From positions 158,422 through 222,421 of the forward strand of contig JAKLDN010000008.1 of assembly GCA_022703505.1 (NCBI GenBank): a DNA stretch of 64,000 nucleotides, read 5' to 3'. Positions within the stretch are counted from its first letter, which is position 1, and each line of letters starts with the position of its first letter. Positions 8,612 through 62,415 of this stretch are shown here, piece after piece. The notes beneath the pieces are model-generated. The model did no database searches, was not told the DNA's origin, and saw only the letters and a list, made by a program, of their open reading frames with translations. Position numbers and translations under genes: made by a program. Origin of the DNA: Spirochaetota bacterium. Lineage in GTDB: Bacteria > Spirochaetota > Spirochaetia > Treponematales > UBA12059.

Positions 8612-8685
8612 GACCCGGTAGCTCAGTTGGATAGAGCGAGCGCCTCCTAAGCGCTAGGTCGTGGGTTCGATTCCCGTCCGGGTCA
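8612..8685 (+). tRNA. tRNA-Arg (anticodon CCT)
   Basis: The cloverleaf folds by hand. Acceptor GACCCGG/CCGGGTC. D-arm GCTCAGTTGGATAGAGC. Anticodon stem AGCGC/GCGCT with loop CTCCTAA. T-loop TTCGATT. Confidence 0.8.
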
Positions 8686-44989: not shown

Positions 44990-45043
44990 GTCGCCTCCTT
45001 CCCGGGTTCGGCCCGGCCGTTCGCTGTCCAGTGCATCCTGAGG

Positions 45044-45250
45044 GTCGACGAAGCACGCGGCGCCTCGTTACCTTACAAACTACTGGAAATCGCCGAAGGG
45101 CGATGCCCTTCGGCGTCGAGCATATCCGGCGGATCGACGAAGCGCGAAGCGCTTCGTTGCCTTCAAACTACTGGAAATCGCCGAAGGGCGATGCCCTTCG
45201 GCGCCAAGCATATCCGGCGGATCGACGAAGCGCGAAGCGCTTCGTTGCCT
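45044..45250. repeat. About 2.4 tandem copies of an 88-bp unit, each with two hairpins
   Basis: Units start near 45044, 45132 and 45220. Each contains CGACGAAGCGC-gaa-GCGCTTCGTTG and CGCCGAAGGGC-gat-GCCCTTCGGCG stem-loops. Copy 1 is diverged. Confidence 0.7.
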
Positions 45251-45292
45251 TGAAAAAACGACGGCGTACCCTACGGTACGCCGTCGTTTTTT
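45251..45292. terminator. Bidirectional rho-independent terminator
   Basis: AAAAAACGACGGCGTACC-cta-CGGTACGCCGTCGTTTTTT. Perfect 13-bp stem flanked by an A6 and a T6 run. Confidence 0.85.
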
Positions 45293-45295
45293 CAA

Positions 45296-45340
45296 GCTCC
45301 CCCGCGGTGACTCGAACACCGGACCCAGTGGTTAACAGGC
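45296..45340 (-). other. tRNA 3'-end-like fragment (T-arm + acceptor 3' strand); candidate att site at the island boundary
   Basis: Minus strand reads GGGTC-CGGTG-TTCGAGT-CACCG-CGGGGGA-G. The upstream 50 nt are AT-rich with no D-arm, anticodon arm or matching 5' acceptor. The terminator lies directly 3' of it. Confidence 0.5.
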
Positions 45341-45566: not shown

Positions 45567-46823
45567 TCAAGCTCTTTTAAAAGCTCCCTGCATCCGCTCA
45601 ATTTCAGGCCTACGGATGCCCAGAGCCTTCGCCCGCACCTGCCACCTCGAGACCACCCCGCGTATCGCCTCCATGATCGAGAGTGCCTCGGGCTTTGAGA
45701 GCCTGAAGTACTGCGCGACCGATAGGGCCAAGTCGAAATCCAACGAATTGTCATGCTCGTCGATGGCGAGGGAGAGGCCCGCCGAATCAGGCGAGGGATT
45801 GATGTCGTAGGCGGGAGAAAGCCACCAGCCCTTCGCATCGAGGAGGAAGCCATGATTCCGAAGATGGTCGTCGGTGTTGGAAACGGCGATGGAAAACACG
45901 ATGCGTTTCCAGAGCTCCCGCAGATCGGCGTCGGGCCGGGATCCGGAGCGCATGATGAACTCCGCGAGCTCGAGGTAGCTTGCGCCGGCCTCGGCGTCAT
46001 CGCCGTCCTTGCGGCCGAGCAAGGTCATGGCGGAGGCGAAATGGATACGTCCCTCTCCTTGGCGATCGAAGCGCTTCGTCATGAAGGTGGAGCCTCGCTT
46101 CGAGAAGGAGTCTAGCCTGCATTCGCTCATCTCGATGCCAGCTGCGCAGGCGAGGTCGGCGACGAGCATCTCCCAAGCGCCTGAGTCGCGTTCATCATCC
46201 TTGCCCGGGAACTTGGCTATCCAGAGTTCGCCCTTCTCGTCCACTACGCTAGCCTTGGGCCTAGCGCCTCCGAGCGAGGAGCCGGGCGCAATCAACATGG
46301 CGAGCCAGGGGTCGAGCTTGTCGTCATCCTCTTCATGTTCCGCGAGGAAACTCGCATACTCGAGATCGCGTAGCGTTGACCACGGCGGGGCTGCCATAGC
46401 CGTATCCAAGCTCTGATAGGCTTCGTTGCCTGGTATCTTAAACCGCAAGGCGCCCAAACGATTCTTATCATGAACGCCGAGGAGGTACTCCGCTTCTCCG
46501 AGCCTTCGCGGCGTCCGCCCTTCCTTCCTTGCCAAGATGGCCTCGCGCCGCCTCATGAGGACGCGGCCCCAACGATCGGGAGAGGAATCCAGGAACAGGC
46601 CGAAATTTGGCTTACCCACCCCGGCATACTGGGGTCCCTTATAGAATCGCAGATCAGGGTCGAGCGTTCGGTTGTCGTCGCGGCGAAGCCATGCCGCGTC
46701 GTACTCGAAGGAGAAGACTTCCTTGCCGCGCGGCGCTTGGACGGACAACGTGCCGAGATGGGCAACGGATCCAAGGCCGAGCCAATCGGCATACACTTCG
46801 ATAGTGCGCCCGGCGTCGCTCAT
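45567..46823 (-). CDS. hipA: HipA-family Ser/Thr kinase toxin
   Basis: 418 aa. SNTDDHLRNHGF catalytic loop. Confidence 0.85.
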   Translation of the reverse strand: MSDAGRTIEVYADWLGLGSVAHLGTLSVQAPRGKEVFSFEYDAAWLRRDDNRTLDPDLRFYKGPQYAGVGKPNFGLFLDSSPDRWGRVLMRRREAILARKEGRTPRRLGEAEYLLGVHDKNRLGALRFKIPGNEAYQSLDTAMAAPPWSTLRDLEYASFLAEHEEDDDKLDPWLAMLIAPGSSLGGARPKASVVDEKGELWIAKFPGKDDERDSGAWEMLVADLACAAGIEMSECRLDSFSKRGSTFMTKRFDRQGEGRIHFASAMTLLGRKDGDDAEAGASYLELAEFIMRSGSRPDADLRELWKRIVFSIAVSNTDDHLRNHGFLLDAKGWWLSPAYDINPSPDSAGLSLAIDEHDNSLDFDLALSVAQYFRLSKPEALSIMEAIRGVVSRWQVRAKALGIRRPEIERMQGAFKRA

Positions 46824-47149
46824 GATTCATCCTTCTTCGGCGACTTTCGGGCACGCCGTCGGCTAGGAAGCTTGGCGTCCTGGAGAGCGCGTCCGAGCTC
46901 GTCATCGAGCGCGACAGCCTCGAGGTCCTTCTCGAGTCCCAGCACGAACAAGACCTGTATCCAAGTAGCCATCGATACCGAGCCGGAGCCATTCTCGAGG
47001 GCGCTCAGGGTCTGTCGGCTGATGCCCGCCCGTTCGGCAACCATCTCGGCGCTGAGATCGCGTCGGAGCCGCGCCAGTCGGATATTCTCGCCGAGCGTTT
47101 CGAGGCTACGTTGGACACTGGGCAATAGGACCGGGAGTTTCTTAGGCAT
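46820..47149 (-). CDS. hipB: HipB-like XRE-family HTH antitoxin
   Basis: LSAEMVAERAGISRQTLSALENG HTH. 4-nt overlap with hipA. Confidence 0.75.
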   Translation of the reverse strand: MPKKLPVLLPSVQRSLETLGENIRLARLRRDLSAEMVAERAGISRQTLSALENGSGSVSMATWIQVLFVLGLEKDLEAVALDDELGRALQDAKLPSRRRARKSPKKDES

Positions 47150-47353
47150 AACGTATAATATAATAGGCATAAAAGGTATATCTGTCAAATTATTACGACG
47201 TAAAACTGAATAACACAACTCACATGCAAAGGTGGTTCTTACAAAATGTCGAGAATCGGACTACTTTGATGTTCCTGACACGGCCACTTCATTGACCATA
47301 CCCTAGAAGGTATCTCCATGGTTTATACCTTGATGGGTAAATGGTAAGAAAGG

Positions 47354-47779
47354 CTATTGAACGATAGGCGTCTTCCCGTCCTTAACCTTGCTAGTCGTCT
47401 TAGCTGCAATCCGCGAGGCGGAGCCCCGGGACTTAGAAACTCCACGAGCACTGGAGGGTTGAGTAGCATAGGTCATAATCCGTTCACGCTGAATGAAGCC
47501 ATGGTCCTTCCGGAGGACTTCCAGAAAACGGCAAGCAGCGCCATTCGGGACGTTCCGACCAGCTTCCCAGGCCTCAACGGTCTTCTTAGCGACTCCAAGA
47601 ACTTGGGCGAAAACAGTCTGGGAAAGCCCAAGAGCGAGCCGGAGTGCCTTAACCGCATGGGCATCATAGGTGGGAAGCGGTGCTATCTTGATCGCTGTAG
47701 TCTTGAGCTTAAGCTTGCCCTCTTGATGAGCCTTGACCTCAGAGAGGCCACGCATGATGCTCTCGAACGCTTCGCCCAT
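47354..47779 (-). CDS. HigA-like HTH antitoxin
   Basis: LRLALGLSQTVFAQVLGVAKKTVEAWEAG HTH. Sits immediately downstream of the toxin. Confidence 0.7.
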   Translation of the reverse strand: MGEAFESIMRGLSEVKAHQEGKLKLKTTAIKIAPLPTYDAHAVKALRLALGLSQTVFAQVLGVAKKTVEAWEAGRNVPNGAACRFLEVLRKDHGFIQRERIMTYATQPSSARGVSKSRGSASRIAAKTTSKVKDGKTPIVQ

Positions 47780-47780
47780 A

Positions 47781-48109
47781 TCAGTCTCCTAACAGTCCCT
47801 TTACGTACGTCTTGATCGCCTGCTTCTCTTCGGAGCTCAGGTTGTCCTTCTCATCCTTACCGAAAACAGTGATGAGATAGATCAGGCCGGACGCCCGCAT
47901 ATCGAGATAGATCGTCCGCAGGCTCCCGGATTCCCCCTACCTTCGCGCGCCCAGCGCAGCTTACGCACACCACCTGTTCCCTGGATGACCGGAGCGATCT
48001 CCGGATGCTCGAGGAGGTAGTTCTGGAGCTCGCGGAGGTCATCCTCCGTCATCCCGAGGGCCTTCCATCGGGATTGGAACTCCTTGGTCTCTACAAAGGT
48101 TCTCGTCAT
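47781..48109 (-). pseudogene. RelE/HigB-family toxin disrupted by a -1 frameshift in a G5 homopolymer
   Basis: N-terminal MTRTFVETKEFQSRWKAL...GVRKLRWAREGRG in one frame. C-terminal ESGSLRTIYLDMRASGLIYLITVFGKDEKDNLS in another. Adding one G at about 47935 restores a 108-aa toxin. Confidence 0.7.
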
Positions 48110-48340: not shown

Positions 48341-49324
48341 TCATTCCAGGAAGCTATAACGGGACTTCATGTAGCGCGCCCAGGGTTCCAGCTCCGGGTG
48401 CCGGTCAGTCGGGACATACCGGAAGAGCTGTTCAGTCGGGATGTACCTGAACTCGTCGGGCATGAGGAGCAGTGTCGGCCACAGCTCGTAGAGGTCGCGG
48501 AAGAACTTACGGTAATGCGGCGAAGTGATGGACCGAAGTTCACGATTAGCTCCGACGGCAATGTGGACCACGATGACGTTATCGACCTCGGGGATGCCGA
48601 CCTCCAGGATGCGGGATGCCAGGAGTTGATGCCGGGCAAGCTGATACATCGGCTCATAGAGCAGGTATTCGATTCGCGGTACAACCTCCAGATTGAACGG
48701 TGTAAAGGGACCATAGAAGATCTCGCGGTAGGTATCCACGCGATCCGAGCCATCGGTCCTAAACCTCTTGTACTGGGACGAATAACTCTCGGTAAACTTA
48801 ACCTCGCACAGCATGAAGACCTTGCGATCATCCATGGTCTCAAAGCACATCGCAGCGTCGATGGAGGTTGAGCCAGCACCGCGAATCCGGTCGGTACCGA
48901 CATGAGATTCCTCCCCTAGGTAGTTGATGTCGCCCTGCCACTCGAAGGCGATGAACGCATCCTCCTCCACAGGGAGCATTCGTTTGATCTCGGGGAATTG
49001 CGGACGAAGGAAGTCAGCCAGAGCATCCGGGCGATTGCGGAACGGGAAGAGCGTGTTGACGCAGAATATCTGGCTGGAACAGGTATGGTTGGTTGGCAAG
49101 CCAGGAAGCGCGGCTCCATGCCAGACGATGCCAAGGCGCTCGAAGGTAGCCAGGGCATCGTCCCGGATCTCATGGAACAAGTTGTAGGCGGCGAGCTCAA
49201 GCGGGAAGCAGAATGGGTACATACGGCTCCGGTATAAGCCCGGAGCCCTGGCCTCGCGCGGGAGAGCCTTGCTGGTCAGCTTCCACTCCAACTGCATCTT
49301 CTTGGCGACGGAGAGGTAATTCAC
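48341..49324 (-). CDS. Hypothetical protein, possible PD-(D/E)xK-type nuclease
   Basis: 327 aa. DDRKVFMLCEVKF resembles a D...E-x-K patch. Sits downstream of the RecT-like gene. Confidence 0.35.
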   Translation of the reverse strand: MNYLSVAKKMQLEWKLTSKALPREARAPGLYRSRMYPFCFPLELAAYNLFHEIRDDALATFERLGIVWHGAALPGLPTNHTCSSQIFCVNTLFPFRNRPDALADFLRPQFPEIKRMLPVEEDAFIAFEWQGDINYLGEESHVGTDRIRGAGSTSIDAAMCFETMDDRKVFMLCEVKFTESYSSQYKRFRTDGSDRVDTYREIFYGPFTPFNLEVVPRIEYLLYEPMYQLARHQLLASRILEVGIPEVDNVIVVHIAVGANRELRSITSPHYRKFFRDLYELWPTLLLMPDEFRYIPTEQLFRYVPTDRHPELEPWARYMKSRYSFLE

Positions 49325-49338
49325 GATAAAGTCCTCCC

Positions 49339-50253
49339 CTACGCCGTAGCGGTCATGCTGGCAACGTTCTTGAGCACCTTCCGCGCGTAGGCGACCATGC
49401 GTTCCACGCCATCGGCGCTGTTCGACTGACGGGCCTTGGCCAGAATCCAGTCCTGATGCTTAGGCGTGAAGGCATCCTCGTTGTCCTCGAGGATCGAACG
49501 GAGTTCGCCCTGGAGACGATTCATCTTGGTGATCTCGTCTTCGGGTTCTGGCTCGGGCTCTACCTCGGGTAGAGGCTTGGTCGCTGGCATGAAGGGCTTT
49601 GGGTGGTCCTCAACAGTGGTAGTATTCATCGCAGGCCGTTCCGACATGGTCGGAAGAGGTACAGGAGTGACCGGCTTATCCTGGATACCAACGCTTTCTG
49701 CATCGGGGAGTTCGGCCGGATCGTAGGGCATGCCGCCGAGCTCCGAGGGAAAAGCCAGGCGGAAGCCTTGGGAAATCGCGACCTTCTTTAACTGAAACTT
49801 GGGCATCTTGGTCCAGAAAGACGTGGGTTGGCCATCGCGCTTCCGCTGGACTGCTTCCTTCCAGTAGACCTCATGTACGAAGGGTGAGTGCCAGTCCTTG
49901 CGGTGGATCTCGACAAGAGCCTTCATATCCTCGCCCTGGCCTTCGACCCAGGCTCGCCAGCCGTCGAGCTGGCTGGTGCGCTCGGCGCGGTCAAGGTAAG
50001 TCTGGTAGCCTACAACGATTGACATGCGCCGGTACTCGCCTTCGCCGTAGACCGCCACGTGGATCTCTCTTTTAAACGGGTTGAGGTGGAAGGCCTGAGC
50101 GACCTCGATGAATTGGAGCTTCTCCTCCTGGGTGAGCTGGGTCGCGAGGCCGAAGGCGGTGAGGTAGTCGAGCAGGGTCTGCTTCTGGACCTCGTTGGTA
50201 GGAAGGGGCGGCCCCTCGCGAGGCTGGGTGGGGAACGGTGATACTGTGGACAT
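49339..50253 (-). CDS. RecT/Bet-family single-strand annealing protein
   Basis: VVGYQTYLDRAERT and WTKMPKFQLKKVAI blocks parallel E. coli RecT (IIGYRGMIDLARRSG, W..MAKKTAIRR). TAGGAGGT RBS. Confidence 0.65.
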   Translation of the reverse strand: MSTVSPFPTQPREGPPLPTNEVQKQTLLDYLTAFGLATQLTQEEKLQFIEVAQAFHLNPFKREIHVAVYGEGEYRRMSIVVGYQTYLDRAERTSQLDGWRAWVEGQGEDMKALVEIHRKDWHSPFVHEVYWKEAVQRKRDGQPTSFWTKMPKFQLKKVAISQGFRLAFPSELGGMPYDPAELPDAESVGIQDKPVTPVPLPTMSERPAMNTTTVEDHPKPFMPATKPLPEVEPEPEPEDEITKMNRLQGELRSILEDNEDAFTPKHQDWILAKARQSNSADGVERMVAYARKVLKNVASMTATA

Positions 50254-50410
50254 GGGAGACCTCCTAGGGGATGGATCTCCAATATCAGTAGTATCGCCAT
50301 ATACGACCAGGAAGTAGAAATGTCCCAACCGAAGCCCAAGCTGGATGTTCATTGACAGCACAATTGGCGCGGTGTACTGTCCATAAGATACTTAACTGGA
50401 GGTAAAAACG

Positions 50411-50611
50411 ATGGCAGATGTATCTACGTCAGGATTCAATGGAACGACAGACATCCCAACGCAAGTCTTCGAAAGCTTCCTTTCGGAGCTGAAGAGCACC
50501 GGAGCATCGAGCGAGATGATCGAAAGACTTCGCAAGACGTTGCTCGAGGATCACATCTTCACAGAAGGCGCTCTAAAGACCGCCGTTCTAGGTGAGGAGA
50601 CGTCGCTATGA
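50411..50611 (+). CDS. Small 66-aa protein translationally coupled to the ATPase
   Basis: GGAGGT RBS. Stop overlaps the ATPase start (ATGA). Confidence 0.5.
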   Translation: MADVSTSGFNGTTDIPTQVFESFLSELKSTGASSEMIERLRKTLLEDHIFTEGALKTAVLGEETSL

Positions 50612-53061
50612 TCCGCGTAGACTCCATTACGATCAAAGAGTTCCGCGGAATACGTGATCTGACGCTCAATCTAAAAGGCAAGAACTATGCGGTCTGCGGT
50701 CCTAATGGGACTGGAAAAAGTGGCGTAGTGGATGCCTTGGAGTTCGCGCTGACTGGTAACGTCTCCCGCCTCTCTGGCAGAGGGAAAGGTGAAGTATCCC
50801 TCAAAGCCCATGGTCCCCATGTTGATCAAAGAAATGCCCCTGACAAGGCTCGAGTAACCGTGATACTAACTATCCCTAGCTTGAATAAGTCAGTCACAAT
50901 CGAACGAAGTGTAAAGGCACCTGCATCTCCTGTAATAACTCCCAATGAGCCAGACGTGCTCGCAGTTCTTCAACACGTCACGAGTCACCCCGAAATCGTA
51001 CTCTCTCGTCGAGAGCTGATTAACTACGTGTTAGCAACTCCTGGTGATCGCGCGCAGGAAGTACAAGCATTGCTCCATTTGGATCGAGTTGAGGAGGTTC
51101 GTGGCACGCTTCTCAAGATCGCTAATGCCTGTGATAAGCAGGTAGCTCCGCAGGCAAGCGCCGCTATATACGCCCGCGATAACCTAATGCGAGCGCTGGA
51201 AGTAACAGAGCTTACGAGTGCAACCATTCTCGAGGCAGCAAACAAACGGCGAGTTATGCTTGGGTTGATAGCACTCACCGAGCTAACTGAATCCGCTTCA
51301 TTAAAAGATGGGATGTCACAGTCCGAAGCAGCTCAATCTTCTGGTGTTCCTAAGGCGCAAACTCTGGCGGACATCCAAGTAACCCGCGAATCATTGGTAG
51401 AGCTTGGAAACGACTCGACTAAAGCACTAATAAGTGGTGTTGTAGCGGACCTCGGCGCCTTGACTGGTGACTCGGCTTTAGAAGCAAGTGTGAAGCTAGA
51501 ATCATTCTACGCAATGGGAATGGGCTTCATCGACAGGGGTTCATGCCCATTCTGTGATGATGAGTGGGATTTGGACGAACTGAGGCTTCATGTCCAGGGG
51601 AAGCTTGATCACCTCAAGCAAGTAGCACTTAGGCGCAGAGTCATTGAGGATAAGCTTATCCCCTTGATCTCGCTTCTTAGGAAACTAGCTAGCAACCTGG
51701 ACTCATTGATTAGTCAAGCGCAGCTTGTGAAGGCACCGGATGTGATGGCAAGCGTAAGCGGCTACAGCGTATATTGCAGAGAAGCATCGAGCAAATTGAC
51801 TACGATACTACCTCTCGCGGATACCATCAAGCAACTCATGGATTTGTCCGCTGTCCCCGATGGTACGATTAATGCGATCACATCGCTTGAAACACTAGTC
51901 TCAGGTCTTCCTGAGCCCACTAAACAGGAAGGGGCCCGAGAATGGCTCACCATTGCACAAGAGCGTCTTCAGGTATGGAGGGAATCGGTTCGACTGCATG
52001 AACTCCTGAAGGAACGAGCCAAGAGCGCTCGAAGGGTATATGACACGTATGTATCGGCGAGTGACAAGAAACTTGTTGGACTGTATGCGGCTGTTGAAAG
52101 GGACTTCTCGAGTCTGTACCGCTTCGCCAATCGAGACGATGAGGACAAGTTCAATGCGAAGATGGTGCCTTCCATGGGGAAGCTTGGATTCGATGTAGAC
52201 TTCTATGGGCGTGGGTTCTTCCCGCCCGGCGCTTATCATAGTGAGGGCCATCAGGACAGCATGGGACTTTGCCTGTACCTAGCACTAATGCGACACATCC
52301 AGGGAGTAGGATTTACATTCGCGGTGCTTGACGACGTGCTCATGTCGGTTGACGCTGGTCATCGCCGGGAAGTGTGCACGCTTCTAAAGACAGAATTTCC
52401 TGACACTCAGTTCGTCCTGACAACGCACGATCCAATCTGGCTTCGACATATGAAGACTGAGGGACTTCTTGCAAGCCGCTCATCAGTGCTATTCAGAAAC
52501 TGGTGCGTAGACGCGGGGCCCTCTCAATGGGAGGAGGAGGATGTCTGGAGTGAGATCGATGGACACCTCGAATTAAATGACATCCGAGCGGCTGCTGCCC
52601 TACTAAGGCATTACCTCGAGTATGTGTCGGCCGAACTGTGCCAACGACTTCGGGCATCAGTAGAGTATCGAGGCGATGCTCAATATCAGCTAGGGGAACT
52701 ACTCCCACCTGCAATTACTCAAATGAGAACGCTTATCAAGCGCGCTAAAGAAGCTGCAAGTTCATGGGATCAAAGAGAGGCTCTTGGGGCATTGTCAGCG
52801 CGCGAAGTAAGGTTCGCGGATTTGGTGAAGGCCACTAATTCCGATGCATGGCAAGTGAATACAGCAGTACACTATAATTCTTGGGATAGCCTTGGCAAGA
52901 ATGATTTCGCTCCGGTCGCTAATGCATACCGAGAATTGCTAGGTGGCTTTACCTGCTCGGGATGTGGAGAGTACCTTCGGGTATCGCCAGACAGAGAGAC
53001 GGCTGAATCGCTTCGCTGTGATTGTGGTGAAACAAATATTAACCTAAAGAAGAAGTCCTGA
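50608..53061 (+). CDS. SMC/Rad50-like ABC ATPase with zinc hook (RloC-like) and C-terminal Zn-ribbon domain
   Basis: Walker A GPNGTGKS. Coiled-coil insert carrying CPFC. Walker B/D-loop VLDDVLMSVD. H-loop TTHD. C-terminal CSGCG...CDCG. Confidence 0.7.
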   Translation: MIRVDSITIKEFRGIRDLTLNLKGKNYAVCGPNGTGKSGVVDALEFALTGNVSRLSGRGKGEVSLKAHGPHVDQRNAPDKARVTVILTIPSLNKSVTIERSVKAPASPVITPNEPDVLAVLQHVTSHPEIVLSRRELINYVLATPGDRAQEVQALLHLDRVEEVRGTLLKIANACDKQVAPQASAAIYARDNLMRALEVTELTSATILEAANKRRVMLGLIALTELTESASLKDGMSQSEAAQSSGVPKAQTLADIQVTRESLVELGNDSTKALISGVVADLGALTGDSALEASVKLESFYAMGMGFIDRGSCPFCDDEWDLDELRLHVQGKLDHLKQVALRRRVIEDKLIPLISLLRKLASNLDSLISQAQLVKAPDVMASVSGYSVYCREASSKLTTILPLADTIKQLMDLSAVPDGTINAITSLETLVSGLPEPTKQEGAREWLTIAQERLQVWRESVRLHELLKERAKSARRVYDTYVSASDKKLVGLYAAVERDFSSLYRFANRDDEDKFNAKMVPSMGKLGFDVDFYGRGFFPPGAYHSEGHQDSMGLCLYLALMRHIQGVGFTFAVLDDVLMSVDAGHRREVCTLLKTEFPDTQFVLTTHDPIWLRHMKTEGLLASRSSVLFRNWCVDAGPSQWEEEDVWSEIDGHLELNDIRAAAALLRHYLEYVSAELCQRLRASVEYRGDAQYQLGELLPPAITQMRTLIKRAKEAASSWDQREALGALSAREVRFADLVKATNSDAWQVNTAVHYNSWDSLGKNDFAPVANAYRELLGGFTCSGCGEYLRVSPDRETAESLRCDCGETNINLKKKS

Positions 53062-53240: not shown

Positions 53241-54146
53241 CTAAGGCACAATGCTGAACAGGAAGTCAGCCATCTGCTCAAGAACGGCTATGCTCTTCAC
53301 CACCTCATCCTTCGTGATCATGATAGATCGACCGAGATCGCCGCCCTTCCCCCCGGTCTTCCTGATATAATCCTCGTCTATCACTCCCATCGTGTGAGCT
53401 AACAGGTGGCGGTTCTGAAACTGCACCTGGATAAAGCTCCACTCGCCTTGGCCGATGCACGAAGGGAAGCCCCTACCGAAAAGTCTGGATATTCGATCGT
53501 TAGCGCCTGAGAGATTCTGGAAAGATATCTTAGGATCGTGCTTGCGACAGAGCTCTCTACCAAAGCCATCGAATGAGGCTACCGCATCCTCTAGAGCATT
53601 CTCGGTAAGCTTCTTTGCGATGTCGCTGCTTGAAGTATCTGCCAAGGTAAGCATCGTGGTAACAATCCTGAAGTTATCGCGAAGTATCTGGAGAGAGTTA
53701 TGAGTCCCACAATCAGGGCAATAGCCGAATGCTCCATAGATCGCATACTCGAGGGTGCATGCAGAACAGGTCGCTCTATGTTCCAGGGTCTCCTCTGAGT
53801 AGTACGCAATTGGTGTAGGACTCCCCTTCACCGTAATCCCAATGGATAACATGGCATGAGGGTCGGGCTTCCTCTCCATCCTCTTGAGTTGTGAGAGTAA
53901 TTGGCTTGACAACTCATGCAACGCGATAGACTGAGCATACTTGATTTGTTGCTTCGTCCAGAATTCAGATTGAGGACCGGTATAGTTGCAGTATGGGCAA
54001 TGACAGGGCACTTCTCCCGGAAGACCGGTCCCGAATTTGATCTTGAAGTACTTCTCGCATTGAGGGCACTCTCGACCGATGTATCCCTCTCCATCTGGCG
54101 ATATCTTTATTGCATACTCCATCTCGACCTTCCAGGTTCCCCTCAA
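53241..54146 (-). CDS. Multi-zinc-ribbon hypothetical protein
   Basis: CPQCEKYF, CHCPYCNY, CSAC, CPDCG cysteine pairs. 301 aa. Confidence 0.5.
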   Translation of the reverse strand: MRGTWKVEMEYAIKISPDGEGYIGRECPQCEKYFKIKFGTGLPGEVPCHCPYCNYTGPQSEFWTKQQIKYAQSIALHELSSQLLSQLKRMERKPDPHAMLSIGITVKGSPTPIAYYSEETLEHRATCSACTLEYAIYGAFGYCPDCGTHNSLQILRDNFRIVTTMLTLADTSSSDIAKKLTENALEDAVASFDGFGRELCRKHDPKISFQNLSGANDRISRLFGRGFPSCIGQGEWSFIQVQFQNRHLLAHTMGVIDEDYIRKTGGKGGDLGRSIMITKDEVVKSIAVLEQMADFLFSIVP

Positions 54147-54158
54147 TATCTTAAGCGC

Positions 54159-54494
54159 TTAGAACACAATGTCTCCAGGATTCTCCTTCGAACTCGACAT
54201 CAGAGCCGTCGTAGCTAGCCTTTGAAGCTGGAGAACACCCTTCGAACCCACAGTTAAGCGCTCAATCTCAGCCAAATCCTTATTCTTGGTCGCGAGTCTC
54301 AGTTCCCTGGTATGTTCCCGTATGTGGCCGAGAAGCAGCTTCACGGTGAACTGGTTGACTTGCCAGACAAGATCGCTAGATATCACGTCCGCCCGTACCG
54401 TAGCCATCCCTGACTCATCCAAGCTTCTTCGAGCAGAATCAAGAGATGAGGCAAGCCTCTTCGCAAGCTGCATCCTTGCAGACATAGCCATCAT
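54159..54494 (-). CDS. Hypothetical 111-aa protein
   Basis: Co-directional and tightly spaced with the flanking genes. No recognisable motif. Confidence 0.4.
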   Translation of the reverse strand: MMAMSARMQLAKRLASSLDSARRSLDESGMATVRADVISSDLVWQVNQFTVKLLLGHIREHTRELRLATKNKDLAEIERLTVGSKGVLQLQRLATTALMSSSKENPGDIVF

Positions 54495-54669: not shown

Positions 54670-55086
54670 CTATTTCCTCCTGAATTGGTGCCAGACAGTG
54701 ATGATGCTCTTAATAAGCCTTCTAGCCATCGTAGTCTTAGGGGCAAACAGCTTCTCGGCTACATCATTCTGGAGTCTTCGTATGCGTTCTATCTGCTTTC
54801 GAGTCATCTTGCTAGACCAAATGACATGCCCTTGGCGGATCCAGTAATGTGACTCGCAGGCAAGTTCCCAGTTTCCGACTGAAGGGAAAAGTGTTGGGAC
54901 ATCATCTTTAATCACTAAACGCCATTCTCCAGGACCTAATGGCGTCACAACTTCATTACCGCAACCACAAGGACACAAATGTATTGCTGTTGAAAATCTG
55001 TCTGACACGTAAAGTACACCTGGTTCAAGAGTGTCTGGGATAATATCTACTCGTTCGATGCGTAGGGAGACGGTTCTCTCGCTCAT
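54670..55086 (-). CDS. Cys-rich small protein (DUF6527-like) downstream of the E1-like gene
   Basis: 138 aa with HLCPCGCG. Start overlaps the E1-like stop by ATGA. Confidence 0.55.
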   Translation of the reverse strand: MSERTVSLRIERVDIIPDTLEPGVLYVSDRFSTAIHLCPCGCGNEVVTPLGPGEWRLVIKDDVPTLFPSVGNWELACESHYWIRQGHVIWSSKMTRKQIERIRRLQNDVAEKLFAPKTTMARRLIKSIITVWHQFRRK

Positions 55087-56336
55087 GAAGACTTCTTTGC
55101 GATATCATTCCACTCAAGAGTGTAGGCACTAAGGCATTCATGAGTAGCATCTTGATAATACCCAATATGTTTCTTCCACCTAATGACAGCTAAGGCCGCA
55201 TTGAGCGCATTAAGGTCCGCGACTTGGATGTTGGATCTGTATAGCTCATCTCCATCTTCGCCAAATGGAGCGGTCATGTTGAAGAAACTTTCTGCTTCCT
55301 TGGTCCCGGTTGACACTCTGCAAATACCAGAAATAGTTCTACTCTTCCCACCATCATTGTCGACTGCCTCAAGGCCCATTCCAACATCAATGAAGGGGAG
55401 CTCAAGACTGAAGAGCAGACTGGAAATCTCATTGCGGACAGACCCGGCATCGACAGCAACGAAAACAAACGCTAGGCTAGAAAGAAGATCACGGTGCGAA
55501 CCATCGACCTTGAGCTCATGAGCCTTGATTCCACGATGTATCCGACTATATGTAGCAGAAAGGTATTGTGCCTTCGTAGTAAGGCTTCCCTTAAAAGTTT
55601 CGAGGGATGCAGCGCCAGGCGTTCGGAAGGCGTTATGTTGGTGGAAGTGGTCATAGTCAAATAGGTGTATCTCTTCAACCGGAGTCTTCGCTACAAGGTC
55701 GAGGATATAAGAACCGGTTCCACCGAGGCCGATGATCCCGACTCGCATCCCTTTGAAAAGATGAGACAGATCCGAAAGTCCAGCCCTTGCAGTCGCGGTG
55801 TCCTCATAGACAAATGGTGTAGGTTCACGAACAGTACGTTCCGCCTTAAATGTTCGAGGCGTCATCGTATCATCGACACGCTTCGCTGGATAAGCTATAA
55901 GCTCCTCATAACGGTGAACTTTGTCCAGAAGAGTTGCGTAGACTCCTTCGGGTGGTTTCGACGATAGATGAAAACCAGCGACACCGCATGTCGGGATTGC
56001 AAAACCGGCGTTCTCGTTGGCGAGTATATTGATGGGGATGTCCGCAGAACTATGGGGCTTCTCACCCATGAAATAGAACGTATGGTCTTCCGCAGTAAGC
56101 TTGCCATCCCGGGTGACAACCTTGCAGGCGAGAACACTTAGACCGATGCTCCCATCAGCTTTGAGGTATGGGAAGTCTCGAAGAATCAGAAGAGAATCTA
56201 GTATCTCGGCATTATAGCCTTCGCTGAGTAGCTCAAGGAGCTCAGCATCAGGACTTGTCGGTTCGTTTGACATTAAAGGACATCCCCTTGTGAACCGCTG
56301 TCGACTCTCCCGGAACCAGGATACCGGTCTTTCCAT
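55083..56336 (-). CDS. E2-like/E1-like (ThiF/MoeB superfamily) fusion protein
   Basis: C-terminal half has GIIGLGGTGSYILDL nucleotide loop and DYDHFHQHNAFR. N-terminal 150 aa has an HPN-like EKPHSS...IPTCG His/Cys patch. True start probably the Met at 56273. Confidence 0.7.
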   Translation of the reverse strand: MERPVSWFRESRQRFTRGCPLMSNEPTSPDAELLELLSEGYNAEILDSLLILRDFPYLKADGSIGLSVLACKVVTRDGKLTAEDHTFYFMGEKPHSSADIPINILANENAGFAIPTCGVAGFHLSSKPPEGVYATLLDKVHRYEELIAYPAKRVDDTMTPRTFKAERTVREPTPFVYEDTATARAGLSDLSHLFKGMRVGIIGLGGTGSYILDLVAKTPVEEIHLFDYDHFHQHNAFRTPGAASLETFKGSLTTKAQYLSATYSRIHRGIKAHELKVDGSHRDLLSSLAFVFVAVDAGSVRNEISSLLFSLELPFIDVGMGLEAVDNDGGKSRTISGICRVSTGTKEAESFFNMTAPFGEDGDELYRSNIQVADLNALNAALAVIRWKKHIGYYQDATHECLSAYTLEWNDIAKKSS

Positions 56337-56502
56337 TCTCCGGAATGAGGAAAGTTATTGTAATGTTGGCGGTTGGAGGTAATGTCTCCCCTGGAAAAGC
56401 AAGCTTAAGAAGATCCTCATAGCTAATCCGTCCGTGCGGAACTTCCTTCGGCCTTGAGTTTACATAGACTTCTACCAAGTTGGCTCTTTCAGCGTCGGGC
56501 AT
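56248..56502 (-). CDS. Ubiquitin-like (beta-grasp) small protein
   Basis: 84 aa immediately upstream of, and overlapping, the E1-like gene. No C-terminal GG (ends KRTDKS). Confidence 0.5.
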   Translation of the reverse strand: MPDAERANLVEVYVNSRPKEVPHGRISYEDLLKLAFPGETLPPTANITITFLIPENGKTGILVPGESTAVHKGMSFNVKRTDKS

Positions 56503-56635: not shown

Positions 56636-59326
56636 CTAATAAATACTCAGAGCTACCTTAAGCTGCCCCCTCAAATCCCTACCCGCCTCATCCCTCTTCA
56701 TCGCCCAGACGAAGAGTGCTTTGCCTTTCGACGCGCGGGCCCAGAGCTCGCCTACTCGGCGCTTCTCGCGTTCTGAGGGATCGGCTGCGATGTGGGCACC
56801 CTTGTACTCGACGACGAGGACGCGGCCATCCTTGAGCCTGGCAATGAAGTCTGGATAGAAGTCGTCTCTCGAGGTAGGAAGGCGGAAGCACCACTGATGT
56901 CGGGGTGGGACGTTGCGTACCCAAGTCTCGACTTCGTCGAGAGCGTCGATCTCCTTGGCGCAGGCGTATTCCTCGCCGTCGCGCTTCAGGTTGTCGACGA
57001 CGGAGAAGAAGTGTTTGGAGAATCCATAGGAGGAAGCAGGCTCTGCCCGTGGGTAGGGACAGCGGTCTTTCGAGAAGGAGAAGTCGCCTTCCCAGACGAG
57101 GCTGCCATCGAGCTCGGGAAGGTCAAGAAGCGACTCAAGTCCTAAGGACGCGGCGCTGAGGCGGTACGAGTCGAGCTTCGCCCTGATCTTATCCTCGAGA
57201 AGGTACTTTTGGAGGATGAGGTCCCCAAGGCGGAGCTTTCGCTCGTCGATGAGCTGGTGTATGAGGCGGGACAAGAAGTCCTGGAGGACCAGCTGGGACA
57301 CGTCGCTCCGCGCGAGGCGGCGATCGAGCCAGAACACGAGGCCGTTTAGGTAGTACTCGCCTGCGACCTCGGCGGTGAAGAGCTCTCGGTCGTAGCGGGT
57401 GTTCCGGGTGATGACTTTCTCGGCAACGACATCAAGCTCCGTGACCTTCCGCTCGGCAGGTACGGAGAACTCCTCCAGTGTGAGGCGAGCGGGGAAGCGC
57501 GACGCATCCGAAAGGTCGAGACGTCCACGGTTGGCAAACCAGCCCTCGTCAATGGGAATGAGCTCGCCTGAGACCTCATCGCGGGAGAAGAGAGAGCCCA
57601 CCGTGAAGACATCGGGGCCAGCAGGAAGGACGCGATGCCGGGAGGCTTGAAGAAGGCGATAGTTGCCAAGGTTGCGCGCGATATCGCGCGTGCGCTCGCC
57701 ACCGGCATCCGCCCCGAGGGTCTCCGCGAGCTTGGCGATCGTAGCCTCGGTGATCGAGCCAGAAACCCTGACGAGAGGGACACCGTCTGAACGAGTACCC
57801 GCAGTCTCGACAACAAGGCCAGACTCGGCGGCGAAGAGGCCAAAATCGAGAGCAGCATACGCGGGTATTGCAATGGACCGACCATCAGGCGCGAGACCGA
57901 CTATGGTGCCAGAGCCTTCACCTGGAAAGAAATCCGCCACCTCGGTCCATGCGTCCGCTTCTATGCGCTCGAAGCCCATCTTGTCGACGAGGCAATCCTT
58001 GAGCGCGGAAGCCGTCTCGGCGAAGTCGCGTGAGGAAACATGGGCATAGGCCTTGTTCAGCAATGCCGAGGGACGCTCCTCCGCGTAGGGCATCCGCAAG
58101 ACACGGCCGAGAAGTTGCTCTACAGCACGCGCGGATTTCAGTTCCTGGATAGAGCAGAAGACATAGGCGAAGGAGCAATCCCAGCCTTCCTTGAGGGCTT
58201 GCACGGTGATGATGTGCCGGATGGAACAATCCGGCGCGAAGAGGTTGACGCCTTCGATGCCGCGCTCGTCTCCGGTCGCCACGGCGATATGGGCGGGATC
58301 GATGCCCTCATTCTGGATGAGGTGTTCGCGAAGCCTGTCGGCGGTGATGACCGTCGGATCATCTTTGTCCTTGGCTTGAGCCTGGTAGAGGGTGATGGGC
58401 CGCACTGAATCCCCGGAGGCCTTGGCGGCTTCTTCTAGGGAGTTTCGGGTGCTGATGGCCGCGGCGACGGTCGTGGCCCAGCTGGCGTGCTCGGCAAGGA
58501 CTATCGGCAGCTTGATCATCTTTTCGGCCTTGAGCTCGGTGGCCGTGGCCTCGTGGAGGACATTTGAGCCGCTGGCACTGCTCGTGTCGGGTGTGGCGGT
58601 AAACTCGATGATACCGAGGGGAGAAAGGCGGGCGAGCGTATCGAAGGAGAGCTTCGACCGGGCGTTGTGCGCTTCGTCGATGATGATGAGCGGCTTAAAG
58701 ACATGGCAGAGGTTGACGAAGGAATGGACGGGCTTTCCCCGGTTGGCTCCTTCCTTACCGAGCTCGAGCCCCGCTATGCCATTGAGGGCCGCGAAGTGAC
58801 GCTCCCATCGTTCGGAATGAGCATAGATGGTTCGGGTTTTCGTGTCTTCCGCTTTGAAGCCCTGGATAGTCGAAACCACGACGACAAGTCGTGTAGAAAA
58901 GTCCTGGGGACTTACCGCTTCGAGTCCATCTCTCGTGACCACAAGAGGACGGCCCCAGGCCTCGACGAGCTCCTCCCGATATGGATGCCCGGCAGTTGAA
59001 AGAGCTGTGAGTGTCTGTTCGAGAATAGCCTGCGATGGGACGAGCCACAGCACATGAAGTGATTGACTGTAGGTATAGCTGTCGCGCACGATGCGCAGGG
59101 AACGCGCAGCGAGCCAGGTCTTGCCGCCTCCGGTCGGGATGCGAATACAGACATAGGGTATATCGCCCACACCCGGAGCCTGGTGCCAGCGAGTAACCGA
59201 GGGACGGCCACGCACGCTCCAGGATTCAATGAAGGCAGCCTTGGGATCGCCAAGGCGCTTGGCTCGCTCGAGGTAGTCCTTCAGGGATTCGAGGGCCTTT
59301 GCCTGGTAGATCTTGGGCTCAAACAT
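56636..59326 (-). CDS. res: Type III restriction enzyme Res subunit (SF2 helicase-nuclease)
   Basis: IIDEAH DEAH box, TATP motif, helicase C blocks. Start overlaps the mod stop by 8 nt. Confidence 0.85.
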   Translation of the reverse strand: MFEPKIYQAKALESLKDYLERAKRLGDPKAAFIESWSVRGRPSVTRWHQAPGVGDIPYVCIRIPTGGGKTWLAARSLRIVRDSYTYSQSLHVLWLVPSQAILEQTLTALSTAGHPYREELVEAWGRPLVVTRDGLEAVSPQDFSTRLVVVVSTIQGFKAEDTKTRTIYAHSERWERHFAALNGIAGLELGKEGANRGKPVHSFVNLCHVFKPLIIIDEAHNARSKLSFDTLARLSPLGIIEFTATPDTSSASGSNVLHEATATELKAEKMIKLPIVLAEHASWATTVAAAISTRNSLEEAAKASGDSVRPITLYQAQAKDKDDPTVITADRLREHLIQNEGIDPAHIAVATGDERGIEGVNLFAPDCSIRHIITVQALKEGWDCSFAYVFCSIQELKSARAVEQLLGRVLRMPYAEERPSALLNKAYAHVSSRDFAETASALKDCLVDKMGFERIEADAWTEVADFFPGEGSGTIVGLAPDGRSIAIPAYAALDFGLFAAESGLVVETAGTRSDGVPLVRVSGSITEATIAKLAETLGADAGGERTRDIARNLGNYRLLQASRHRVLPAGPDVFTVGSLFSRDEVSGELIPIDEGWFANRGRLDLSDASRFPARLTLEEFSVPAERKVTELDVVAEKVITRNTRYDRELFTAEVAGEYYLNGLVFWLDRRLARSDVSQLVLQDFLSRLIHQLIDERKLRLGDLILQKYLLEDKIRAKLDSYRLSAASLGLESLLDLPELDGSLVWEGDFSFSKDRCPYPRAEPASSYGFSKHFFSVVDNLKRDGEEYACAKEIDALDEVETWVRNVPPRHQWCFRLPTSRDDFYPDFIARLKDGRVLVVEYKGAHIAADPSEREKRRVGELWARASKGKALFVWAMKRDEAGRDLRGQLKVALSIY

Positions 59327-60977
59327 GATCGCCCTCCTCTCCAGCGCTAGCGGCGCGTGTAGCGAGGGTTTGAGGAGCTTCGGGCATGAGCCCTGCCGCG
59401 TATTCGAGCGCGCCTTCCGCGAGGAGCGGCATGGACCCGAGGTCATATGGTATCTGCTTGAAGGAGATATTGATGCGAGCGAGTGATGAGGGCGAATAGG
59501 TCGTCGCCTCGGCGTAAACAATGCGAGGACCATCATGCTTGGGGAGCGAGGCCAGAACGGCTGGCGTGAGGACATTGCCGCCCTTGGGGCGCTTGTCCCC
59601 GAGTATCCCGTTGTACAGGAGATAGAGGCCTCGTCCCTCGTGAATGCCGAGGAATGGCGATGCCGGCTTGATCGAGCCGCCTATGGCTGGTGCCTTGGTC
59701 TCGCGCCACCAGACGAAGGCAGCGAGGTCGATAAACTTGACCTTGGGGTTGAGGCGACCGAAGGCATCAAAGAGAGTCTCGCCGAGCTTGACGAAGCGGA
59801 AGCCGCCACCACCCTTCCAGCTAACAACTTCAGAGATGCCACCCTGCTCTCCGTCAATGACCTTCTGAAGACGGGGTAGGCAGTGCGTTACCGCATGGTC
59901 GCCCATCTCAACTCCGATCCAGCGACGGCCCATCTTGTGGGCGACGGCTGCGGTTGTGCCGGAGCCAAGGAAGGAGTCGAGGACAATATCACCAGGGTTA
60001 GTGGCGATGTGGATAATTCGGTGAAGTAGCCTTTCAGGCTTGGGTGTAGAAAACGGAATCAAGTCAGGAAAAAGCTTCGTAATCTCAAGCTTGGCCTGTC
60101 CATTGGATCCGACTTCTTGGTATAGCCAAAGCGTTGATGGCACAAGTCCAGCTTGCACCTCCGAAAGAAACTTCTTGACCCGAGGTGCATTGCCTCCATC
60201 TTGGCCAAACCAAATGCGTCCATCAACCCGCATCTCTTCAAAGCGAGGTTGAGTATAGAGCCAACACCGCCCAGGCGGGGGATCAATGGTTCGCCCGCTC
60301 GGAGTAGTGATAGTATAGAACTGCTCCTTGCGCCGCCCCTTCTCTGCTTTTGCATGTGCAGGTAGCGAAGCCCAAACACCTCTTGGATCGTTGTCTGGAT
60401 TGGTGAAGCGTTCGAGCTGGCTCTCCGAAGCAGGGAGCATGTGTCGAACTTGCTTCCACTGCTCGCGGTCCTTTGCGTAAAGGAGTACATGATCGTGGAC
60501 GGAAGAGAAATCCGTCCGGTTCTCTCTCGTCGGGTTCTTCTGCCAGAATATGTCAGCGATAAAATTACCGCGGCCAAGAAGCTCATCGAGGATAACCTTC
60601 AGGTACTGGCATTCTTGGTCATCAATGTTGACCCAAAGACTTGCATCGTCAGTCATAAATTCTCTCAACAACTCCAGCCTCGGGTACATCATCGAAAGCC
60701 ACGTTGAGTGCTCAAGGTTGTCGTCGTAGTGCTCGAAGGCAGACCCGGTGTTGTAGGGCGGGTCGATGTAGATGCACTTCACGCGCCCAGCGTAGTAGGG
60801 AAGCAAGGCTTTGAGAGCCTCGAGGTTGTCGCCCTGGATGAGGAGGTTGTCCTGCGCGGCCTTCGGGTCGCCGACAATGCCGCCTTTGGCTGCGGTGTGA
60901 GGCTCGAGGAGGCGGAAGGGAACAAGGGATGCGGCGCGGAGGGCGTCTTCTTTACCTGTCCAAGTTAGCGTAGGCAT
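59319..60977 (-). CDS. mod: Type III R-M DNA methyltransferase Mod (beta-class, N6A/N4C)
   Basis: DPPYN motif IV precedes FLGSGTT motif I (permuted order). Confidence 0.85.
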   Translation of the reverse strand: MPTLTWTGKEDALRAASLVPFRLLEPHTAAKGGIVGDPKAAQDNLLIQGDNLEALKALLPYYAGRVKCIYIDPPYNTGSAFEHYDDNLEHSTWLSMMYPRLELLREFMTDDASLWVNIDDQECQYLKVILDELLGRGNFIADIFWQKNPTRENRTDFSSVHDHVLLYAKDREQWKQVRHMLPASESQLERFTNPDNDPRGVWASLPAHAKAEKGRRKEQFYTITTPSGRTIDPPPGRCWLYTQPRFEEMRVDGRIWFGQDGGNAPRVKKFLSEVQAGLVPSTLWLYQEVGSNGQAKLEITKLFPDLIPFSTPKPERLLHRIIHIATNPGDIVLDSFLGSGTTAAVAHKMGRRWIGVEMGDHAVTHCLPRLQKVIDGEQGGISEVVSWKGGGGFRFVKLGETLFDAFGRLNPKVKFIDLAAFVWWRETKAPAIGGSIKPASPFLGIHEGRGLYLLYNGILGDKRPKGGNVLTPAVLASLPKHDGPRIVYAEATTYSPSSLARINISFKQIPYDLGSMPLLAEGALEYAAGLMPEAPQTLATRAASAGEEGDHV

Positions 60978-61014: not shown

Positions 61015-61455
61015 TTATAGAATCCAAGGGAGCGGTAGAGCGGTGATTCCGAGGCGGCTCATGCCGTCGTGCACGTGCTGACGGAGAAAAGGCCACATGG
61101 TCTTCTGGATCTGGTTCTCATGGAAGACCTTGCGCACTTCTTCATCCTTCCAGAGTTCCTCGAAGGTGGGAACATCCGTGAGATGAAAGACGATGAAGAA
61201 CACGGAGACCTGACGGAAGATAGGGGCTCCCTGGAAGCTCACGGTGATCTCGTATCGCGGGCGGAAAATACGGGTTTCGCCGTTGACCAGGACAGGATCG
61301 CCATCAGCGAAAACCTGGTTCCATCCGAGGTTGATCTCGCTATTAGGCGCAGGCATCTCCCCGAGCAGATCGGAGTGAAAAGACATCGGCTTGATGTCTT
61401 GCAGGCTCATCGACTTGAGGAGCCGCGTGAGCCGCTCGTTGATCGTTTCGCTCAT
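61015..61455 (-). CDS. Hypothetical 146-aa protein coupled to the MqsA-like gene
   Basis: 4-nt overlap with the upstream antitoxin gene. No recognisable motif. Confidence 0.4.
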   Translation of the reverse strand: MSETINERLTRLLKSMSLQDIKPMSFHSDLLGEMPAPNSEINLGWNQVFADGDPVLVNGETRIFRPRYEITVSFQGAPIFRQVSVFFIVFHLTDVPTFEELWKDEEVRKVFHENQIQKTMWPFLRQHVHDGMSRLGITALPLPWIL

Positions 61456-62159: not shown

Positions 62160-62415
62160 AATTGCCCTCATCATGAAAAGACATCACGATACCGGCATCC
62201 CCATTGGTGTCGGTCCAGATCTTCAGCTTGATGTACAACAGAATCATGTCTCCAGCCGGGGCCTGGCGCGTGTAGGGTTGATGAAACACCATGACGTCTC
62301 CAGGCGACCCATCATCATCGGGCTCAGGCCCCTTGGCATAGTGTTCAGGCCTCAGGTCGGCGATGATCTCGTACGCGTCCTCTTCGCTGAGTCCTTCATC
62401 CAGCATGAATTCCAT
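62149..62415 (-). CDS. MqsR-like toxin
   Basis: ILLYIKLKIWTDTNGDAGIVMSFHDE matches the MqsR core (YLKITVI...VSFKE). Internal Met start. Confidence 0.6.
   Translation of the reverse strand: MEFMLDEGLSEEDAYEIIADLRPEHYAKGPEPDDDGSPGDVMVFHQPYTRQAPAGDMILLYIKLKIWTDTNGDAGIVMSFHDEGNYEQ

Follow-up and report, generated by a model that had tools for sequence, protein, structure and literature searches.

A two-gene cassette encoding a Rad50-like ABC ATPase with a predicted zinc hook and a HEPN-like domain, and a small acidic partner

The analyzed DNA, a 64,000-nt stretch of a Spirochaetota genome (contig JAKLDN010000008.1 of GCA_022703505.1) hereafter called the window, carries at 50411-53061 two overlapping open reading frames (ORFs) that encode a 66-aa acidic protein and an 817-aa ATP-binding cassette (ABC) ATPase. 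With roughly even confidence, our findings suggest that this pair is a widespread, self-contained and horizontally mobile module consisting of an ABC ATPase fused to a HEPN domain and of a dedicated small regulator; our confidence in any specific RNA target or trigger is far lower. The original prediction for this locus, made from the sequence, had proposed an RloC-like anticodon nuclease associated with Type III restriction-modification (R-M) genes. It was right on architecture and probably on logic, and wrong or unproven on family membership and on the significance of the R-M genes.

Architecture of the cassette and its large protein

Both ORFs, which had been described as translationally coupled, are present, and the stop codon of the 66-aa ORF overlaps the start codon of the 817-aa ORF in a 4-nt ATGA. 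The G+C content of the window falls from ~70% to ~50-57% near 45 kb, and since the cassette lies in the low-GC part, we place it in a foreign island. A promoter and terminator scan at the cassette yielded counts not above those of shuffled sequences, with just a weak hairpin 12 nt past the stop codon, and an Rfam scan of the low-GC island detected 0 RNA families. The features of the cassette are as follows.

50398..50402 (+): Shine-Dalgarno sequence GGAGG, 8 nt 5′ of the ATG of the small ORF (direct sequence reading).
50411..50611 (+): small partner gene, 66 aa (ORF list and sequence reading).
50608..53061 (+): gene for the Rad50-like ABC ATPase with zinc hook, HEPN-like domain and Zn ribbon, 817 aa (ORF list, homologs, alignment and head fold search).
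50608..51078 (+): N-terminal lobe of the ABC head, residues 1-157, with Walker A at 31-38 and Q153.
51079..51534 (+): first coiled-coil arm, residues 158-309 (helices in the full-length model, at low confidence; sub-threshold matches to AAA_13 and the LmuB coiled coil).
51535..51570 (+): hook loop, residues 310-321, with CPFC at 313-316 (nt 51544-51555; non-helical break between the arms in the model).
51571..52128 (+): second coiled-coil arm, residues 322-507 (full-length model).
52129..52452 (+): C-terminal lobe of the ABC head, residues 508-615 (motifs, alignment, and hhalign to the PrrC Walker B/H-loop, E 6e-5).
52453..52542 (+): residues 616-645, a linker plus beta-hairpin in which W632, G637 and P638 are invariant (model and alignment).
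52543..52947 (+): residues 646-780, a HEPN-like helical bundle in which R667-x3-E671 and N751-x3-H755 are invariant.
52948..53043 (+): C-terminal Cys4 zinc ribbon, residues 781-812, with C783, C786, C804 and C806 (three short strands in the model).

Each motif reported for the 817-aa protein was found at its expected position: Walker A (GPNGTGKS, residues 31-38), the CPFC hook (313-316), a signature-like HSEGHQD (544-550), Walker B (VLDDV, 573-577), the D-loop (SVD, 580-582), TTHD with the H-loop histidine H607 (605-608), and CSGC (783-786) and CDCG (804-807) of the ribbon. In an alignment of 297 family members (29-100% identity), the ATPase, hook and C-terminal motif residues are invariant or nearly so, and the motifs are therefore not chance occurrences. 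The hook cysteines C313 and C316 are kept in 296 members and P314 in 295, while the ribbon cysteines are conserved in 293-296; matches of the ribbon to Zn-ribbon Pfam models were weak. In Walker B (LDD, 574-576), Asp occupies the place where a catalytic Glu is usual, as in PrrC. A coiled coil of ~350 residues splits the two lobes of the head and carries the essentially invariant CPxC, a predicted zinc hook, at its apex.

The full-length AlphaFold2 model was poor (predicted local distance difference test score of 68) and was used for secondary structure and for a fold search with the head only. The nearest folds of the head were those of Rad50, SMC and SbcC. The head is not Lamassu- or Septu-like, and the grouping with those families that had been named as a possible objection to the prediction did not emerge. 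The cassette differs from Rad50/SbcC systems in several respects: no Mre11 or SbcD partner accompanies it in 80 loci, its coiled coil is much shorter than that of SbcC or eukaryotic Rad50, an effector domain is added at the C terminus, and Asp replaces the catalytic Walker B Glu.

For the C-terminal helical bundle, the best structural matches of the predicted model were HEPN domains. A Foldseek search against PDB returned nothing significant, and a hidden Markov model of the C-terminal domain matched no PDB sequence. The HEPN survey (Anantharaman et al., 2013; PMC3710099) places the PrrC and RloC nucleases in the HEPN superfamily and describes a conserved acidic residue in helix 2, a catalytic His located where helix 3 ends or where the loop to helix 4 starts, and frequent helical inserts between helices 2 and 3; according to the same survey, some clades retain the His without the motif Arg and conserve another basic residue elsewhere. 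Our model of the C-terminal domain fits this description. R667 and E671 lie in the second predicted helix (659-681), N751 and H755 lie in the loop that follows helix 723-744 and precedes the last helix, and an extra helix is modeled between them. The invariant E671 thus corresponds to the acidic residue of helix 2. The HEPN Rx4-6H motif is absent: H755 is invariant and rightly placed, but positions -4 to -7 from it are N751, V750, Q749 and W748, with no Arg.

A zinc hook and a long coiled coil are typical of DNA-tethering machines, and the closest folds named above would also suit a system that clamps or tethers foreign DNA as Wadjet, Lamassu or SbcCD do. The helical bundle and ribbon would then bind DNA or a partner instead of acting as a nuclease, and the small protein would be an accessory resembling a kleisin or an Mre11 Rad50-binding domain, bridging or gating the heads. 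Zn ribbons often bind nucleic acid, HEPN-fold domains lacking Rx4-6H can be non-catalytic binders, and the automatic Gene Ontology term in RefSeq is double-strand break repair, all in keeping with this idea. However, no nuclease, kleisin or other partner is conserved in the 80 loci, which would leave a purely structural ATPase without an effector. In addition, the four polar residues (R, E, N and H) that are invariant on a small helical domain in 297 sequences look catalytic, and a partner of ~65 aa is far smaller than kleisins or LmuC/JetA-type subunits. We therefore regard a DNA clamp as unlikely.

Relationship to RloC, PrrC and other ABC-gated nucleases

RloC is a Rad50-like anticodon nuclease that excises the wobble nucleotide and belongs to Pfam AAA_13. 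Its defining features are the ABC motifs, a coiled-coil insert bearing a CX2C hook, and the triad Arg-X3-Glu-X36-52-His at the C terminus, which in G. kaustophilus is R692/E696/H737 (PMC2610378). The essential nuclease residues of PrrC, all kept in RloC, are R320, N321, E324, R349, N352 and H356 (PMC3025547). The RloC-type layout that had been proposed for the 817-aa protein holds: a long coiled coil with an apical CxxC hook interrupts the ABC head, and a C-terminal effector domain follows. Comparison with RloC was likewise positive for all ATPase motifs (GPNGTGKS, HSEGHQD, LDD, SVD and H607) and for the hook, with arms 158-309 and 322-507 flanking CPFC. Further likenesses are the single polypeptide of ~800 aa, the position of the hook (C291 in GkaRloC and C313 here), the presence of R-x3-E and N-x3-H in a C-terminal helical domain, occasional linkage to Type I or III R-M genes and ArdC, and residence in mobile islands. 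As differences, the cassette protein has an extra C-terminal Cys4 ribbon and an obligate coupled small acidic partner, and RloC has neither.

The Arg/Glu/His set whose absence had been named as a possible objection is present. R667, E671 and H755, together with N751, are invariant, but the spacing is not that of RloC: E671 and H755 are separated by x83, H755 is the only invariant His, and no His occurs 36-52 residues after E671. The position of the essential Arg shared by PrrC and RloC (R349 in PrrC) is occupied by W748 in 294 of 297 members, while N751, the equivalent of the essential Asn, is invariant. For direct comparison, a real 396-aa PrrC encoded beside an hsdS gene was recovered by back-translating the published LARP peptide. 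Its motifs are TLLRNLYEK and SRIINFTSHS, where the cassette family has ALLRHYLEY and WQVNTAVHYNS, and on these readings R, E, N and H, four of five core residues, agree in their order and in the spacing within each motif. Between Glu and His, the cassette family has 83 residues, as opposed to 31 in PrrC and 36-52 in RloC.

Pfam AAA_13 (PF13166), which all real PrrC homologs examined carry, did not match the window protein even at E<=5. A single homolog matched it below threshold (29 bits against a cutoff of 36), with residues 170-617 aligned to profile positions 132-579 of 713, and this match ends where the C-terminal domain begins. The PADLOC PrrC model found nothing on the C-terminal domain, whereas in the positive control it gave 491 bits for a real PrrC and 153 bits for the nuclease domain of that protein. 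When the C-terminal profile (Neff 1.8 or 4.7) was compared by hhalign with a shallow PrrC profile (Neff 1.5), the probability was <1%; the only region that hhalign aligned to PrrC was that of Walker B and the H-loop (E 6e-5). Membership of RloC/PrrC by sequence was accordingly rejected as a classification, since for the C-terminal domain neither Pfam AAA_13, nor the PADLOC PrrC model, nor hhalign with a shallow or a deep profile gave a match.

The proposed RloC membership is thus not supported, in view of the x83 spacing, of W748 in place of Arg and of the negative profile searches. A direct comparison made with PrrC only, through a shallow profile, leaves membership of RloC/PrrC undemonstrated, and a very distant relationship is possible from the sequences. 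That the protein is a divergent true RloC, in which the extra helices between Glu and His are an insertion and which would cut or excise the tRNA anticodon upon DNA damage, appears quite improbable. Its size, domain order and hook position, its R-x3-E and N-x3-H, and the one homolog whose coiled coil and second lobe matched AAA_13 below threshold would agree with such an origin, as would R-M linkage in ~10-15% of loci, like the 8 of 72 reported for RloC, and ArdC linkage in both (PMC2610378). Against these stand the spacing outside the defining x36-52, the Trp at an essential Arg position, the failure of AAA_13 to match the window protein and of any model to match its C-terminal domain, and the negative PrrC model and hhalign results alongside a working positive control. 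Both the Zn ribbon and the coupled small gene, moreover, are missing from RloC.

The likeness to PrrC includes an ABC ATPase with a DD-type Walker B ahead of a nuclease domain (predicted here) at the C terminus, LLR[N/H]xxE and [I/V]NxxxH as local motifs common to both, and a separate protein proposed to keep the nuclease silent. PrrC, with its 396 aa, lacks a coiled coil and hook and lies inside an hsd operon. It cuts the anticodon of tRNA-Lys and is kept silent by a Type Ic R-M enzyme, EcoprrI, whereas the putative silencer here would be a dedicated 66-aa protein. No Type I hsd gene lies near the cassette in the window, and Type I genes are neighbors in ~5 of 81 loci. Separately, a 95-kb IMG/VR contig classed as viral (L085) carries a complete prrC (79-1957; 396 aa) directly downstream of an hsdS-like gene; this classical PrrC/Type I arrangement is possibly part of a prophage or of a mis-binned island.

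Several other defense systems, namely Septu PtuA and the PtuAB of retron Eco7, PARIS AriAB and Lamassu LmuB, likewise use an SMC/ABC-type ATPase that gates a nuclease. PtuAB of retron Eco7 and PARIS act on tRNA, so that control of a translation-disabling nuclease by an ABC ATPase is a recurrent logic. In all of these the nuclease is a separate protein (HNH, TOPRIM, Cap4 or other), unlike the fused domain here. Membership of Lamassu, Septu, MADS, Gabija or PARIS was rejected, with weak P-loop and Walker B matches far below thresholds: NCBIfam scores were 36 bits for PtuA (cutoff 500) and 21 for MAD3 (cutoff 420), and the best PADLOC scores of 59 (mad3), 53 and 50 (LmuB) bits covered the head only. 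None of the partner genes of Septu, Lamassu or MADS (PtuB HNH; LmuA/LmuC; other mad genes) is adjacent.

Closer in plan are the ABC-HEPN groups APECO1_4465 and ERFG_01251 (Anantharaman et al., 2013; PMC3710099), which combine an ABC ATPase with a C-terminal HEPN domain and occur in mobile islands. The available passages on these groups mention no zinc hook, Zn ribbon or small partner, and as the comparison is by description only, the cassette family could be one of them. As portrayed there, they show that the ABC-HEPN design arose or diversified several times. Because that paper lists such further groups, we do not call the cassette categorically new; it is an unnamed family of the ABC-ATPase-gated HEPN nuclease kind. 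Targeted full-text searching of open-access literature, in which the Krishnan et al. (2020) classification of ABC ATPases was not included, turned up no description of the family, and depositors give it no name beyond 'AAA family ATPase' or 'RecF'. No model for the effector domain or the partner exists in Pfam 2025, NCBIfam 2026, PHROGs v4 or PADLOC 2023.

Small partner, distribution and proposed mode of action

The original prediction saw no obvious counterpart for the 66-aa ORF. On the contrary, counterparts stand beside essentially every member of the family, while RloC and PrrC have none. A homologous small ORF of 58-77 aa precedes the ATPase gene in 76 of the 79 loci that have upstream sequence, and in 72 of the 79 the two genes share a 4-nt stop/start overlap (ATGA in 57, GTGA in 14 and TTGA in 1), from which we conclude that the two proteins are made together. 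The small ORF was also called by gene callers in four assemblies and in RefSeq. The 66-aa protein has an isoelectric point of 4.4 and a net charge of -6 and is predicted to be helical; across the family, the median net charge is -4, and a core of ~50 residues has a helical-looking pattern.

The small protein matched no Pfam, PHROG, NCBIfam or PADLOC model, and these library scans detected no DNA-binding or autoregulatory domain in it. A profile search retrieved standalone 63-78-aa 'hypothetical proteins' only, with 0 fusions or alternative partners among 21 matches; behind the two most divergent matches follows an 839-aa SMC_N ATPase, with the 4-nt overlap kept. Mean column identity is 34% for the small protein and 42-49% for the ATPase, indicating that the former changes faster. 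Given its fixed coupling with the ATPase and this faster evolution, the small protein is best explained as a dedicated regulator. As in type II toxin-antitoxin systems, a small upstream gene overlaps a larger gene and is co-inherited with it.

The family is widespread. A word-index search identified 1,349 homolog clusters for the large protein, and the best 120 of these are almost all 814-827 aa long, are 58-100% identical and are named at most 'AAA family ATPase' or 'RecF'. At 50% identity, the family comprises at least 840 clusters. When one genome per species was scanned, at least 546 genomes (~0.3% of species genomes) encoded a relative. The hosts include Acidobacteriota, Nitrospirota, Verrucomicrobiota, Planctomycetota, Alpha-, Beta- and Gammaproteobacteria, Bacteroidota, Patescibacteria, Leptospira and Legionella, and one plasmid match came from the archaeon Halorhabdus. 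The family occurs on plasmids, elements resembling integrative and conjugative elements (ICEs) and defense islands across many phyla. Twenty-five annotated plasmids carry it, seven of them conjugative, with the label always 'AAA family ATPase/ATP-binding protein' next to 'hypothetical protein'; the phage genome collection contained no homolog. In a profile search of 1.84 billion representatives, the C-terminal domain occurred, among the best 150 matches, only in the ~817-aa layout or its fragments.

No third gene is fixed beside the pair. All-vs-all clustering of ORFs within 6 kb in 81 loci gave a best cluster present in 11, at variable positions. The largest clusters, identified by reading representative sequences and varying in position and strand, were large serine recombinases (11), Type III Mod (8), a helix-turn-helix (HTH) protein (6) and Type I HsdM (5), followed by HsdR, ArdC-like proteins and the type IV coupling protein (T4CP) with four each. 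The 148 immediate neighbors match 96 different Pfam families, and about one in ten of them matches recognized defense models, including Type III REase, BrxL, Type I M/S, HmaB, AbiEi, Dsr1, Hhe and PDC candidates. R-M genes neighbor the cassette in ~10-15% of loci. In three ICE or plasmid loci (L087/L088, 1245-4320, and L089 on Phaeobacter pP72_b), ArdC-N, an orphan HEAT-repeat methyltransferase, a strawberry-notch helicase, DUF6878, DUF736 and DUF2493 proteins, a relaxase and T4CP are found near the cassette. This neighborhood resembles the leading or establishment regions of plasmids, which may bear on when the cassette is expressed.

Automatic JGI and RefSeq names ('RecF', 'double-strand break repair') would suggest a housekeeping DNA-repair ATPase, a paralogue of RecF, RecN or SbcC, and genes for RecT and a PD-(D/E)XK nuclease do adjoin the cassette in the window and in a related locus (L001). 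The distribution effectively refutes this explanation, which we consider extremely improbable: the spread across phyla is patchy, the setting is a low-GC island or a plasmid, the neighbors vary, and the NCBIfam RecF, RecN and SbcC scores are far below their cutoffs.

Beyond the small protein, the cassette lacks a conserved partner, which leaves the C-terminal domain as the sole candidate effector. The most economical reading of its four invariant polar residues is a metal-independent HEPN-type RNase. In RloC and PrrC the nuclease is regulated by an ABC head, and the hook tunes activity; by analogy, the ATPase would act as sensor and switch within hook-mediated dimers. A DNA or phage-derived cue at the head may drive ATP-dependent head engagement, which would bring the two nuclease domains together and form the active site. 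Cleavage of tRNA or another translation RNA would then arrest the cell, either as abortive infection or as post-segregational killing. The small acidic partner would be a dedicated regulator, most likely an inhibitor that, like an antitoxin, keeps the nuclease or the head switched off, and would fill the place that a Type I R-M enzyme has for PrrC.

A toxin-antitoxin addiction module that stabilizes plasmids and ICEs rather than defending against phages would share much of this mechanism. The order of a small gene, a 4-nt overlap and a large putative toxin is as such a module would have it, and conjugative plasmids and ICE-like contigs carry the cassette beside relaxase, T4CP and recombinase genes while phage genomes lack it. 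Yet an 817-aa ATPase with hook and coiled coil is far more elaborate than addiction needs, about a tenth of immediate neighbors are recognized defense genes, and no domain for DNA binding or autoregulation was detected in the small protein, so that addiction as the sole role seems doubtful. A further, rather speculative variant, to which we give a low probability, is that the small protein is a nucleic-acid mimic or decoy within a previously unrecognized immune sensor, seated either at the interface of the HEPN dimer or in the DNA-binding groove of the Rad50-like head. Its release would come from free DNA ends or from phage or plasmid factors, such as anti-restriction proteins, to which mimics of this kind bind or by which they are displaced, and hook-bridged head engagement would then assemble an Arg-less HEPN site from R-x3-E and N-x3-H, with support from the Zn ribbon. 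If true, this would be a new way to silence an ABC-gated RNase without an R-M enzyme.

Gating of a nuclease by ABC/SMC ATPases is a major theme of prokaryotic immunity (PrrC, RloC, PARIS, Septu/retron Eco7 and Lamassu), to which the cassette family adds a large branch. Its distinguishing combination is a zinc hook, a HEPN-like domain without the canonical Arg and a dedicated small partner. The cassette offers a compact two-gene system for studying how a Rad50-type hook and head cycle may lead to RNase activation, and how a toxin may be silenced without an R-M enzyme. Models of both proteins in defense-annotation tools would label hundreds of anonymous pairs of 'AAA family ATPase' and 'hypothetical protein'.

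Surroundings of the cassette in the window

A Type III R-M pair does lie near the cassette, as had been reported, with the res ORF ending at 56636, 3.6 kb downstream, and mod beyond it. The meaning attached to this proximity did not hold up. R-M genes are neighbors in a small minority of loci, and the proximity is incidental because a Bub-type ubiquitination-like operon lies between. This operon (54670-56502, -) encodes Multiubiquitin (56248-56502), a DUF6791+ThiF E1 (55083-56336) and a DUF6527/BubE E2 (54670-55086), and is followed in the same orientation (53241-54494, -) by two ORFs of 54 and 111 aa and by a Zn-ribbon protein of 301 aa (PADLOC candidate PDC-M14A, 4e-17). Part of the Bub operon is absent from GCA_035912075.1 (L081) relative to the window.

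On the other side of the cassette, and divergent from it, genes for a recombinase pair, a RecT/Bet annealase (49339-50361) and a PD-(D/E)XK 'REase-ARP' nuclease (48341-49324), occupy 48341-50361 (-). As the RecT gene is also the upstream neighbor in the 77%-identical locus L001, the RecT and cassette modules travel together in close relatives, not across the family. The left end of the island (45567-48109, -) carries a HipA_C kinase (418 aa) with an HTH_31 partner, and a second toxin-antitoxin-like pair in which a 141-aa HTH_3 protein stands beside a 75-aa ORF (47882-48109) that may be a RelE/HigB-like toxin candidate. At 45016-45296, three tandem units of ~88 nt with internal palindromes, resembling repetitive extragenic palindromic elements, are followed by a perfect 22-bp hairpin. 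These repeats and the hairpin coincide exactly with the left edge of the low-GC island, where G+C drops from ~70% to ~55%; the only tRNA gene in the window is at 8612-8685, not near them.

Within the Type III genes (56636-60977, -), the listed res ORF, which starts at 59575 and encodes 979 aa, shares ~250 nt with the mod ORF (59319-60977). Translation of res probably begins instead at an internal Met (MFEPKIYQAK), giving the 896-aa product that is called in other assemblies. The best match of Res, a weak one, was the NCBIfam BPTD_3080-type restriction endonuclease model. Beyond mod, two overlapping ORFs of 146 and 240 aa (61015-62174, -) were found, and the 240-aa protein, which begins CxxC...CxxC, looks from its sequence like a Zn-finger/HTH antitoxin-type regulator.

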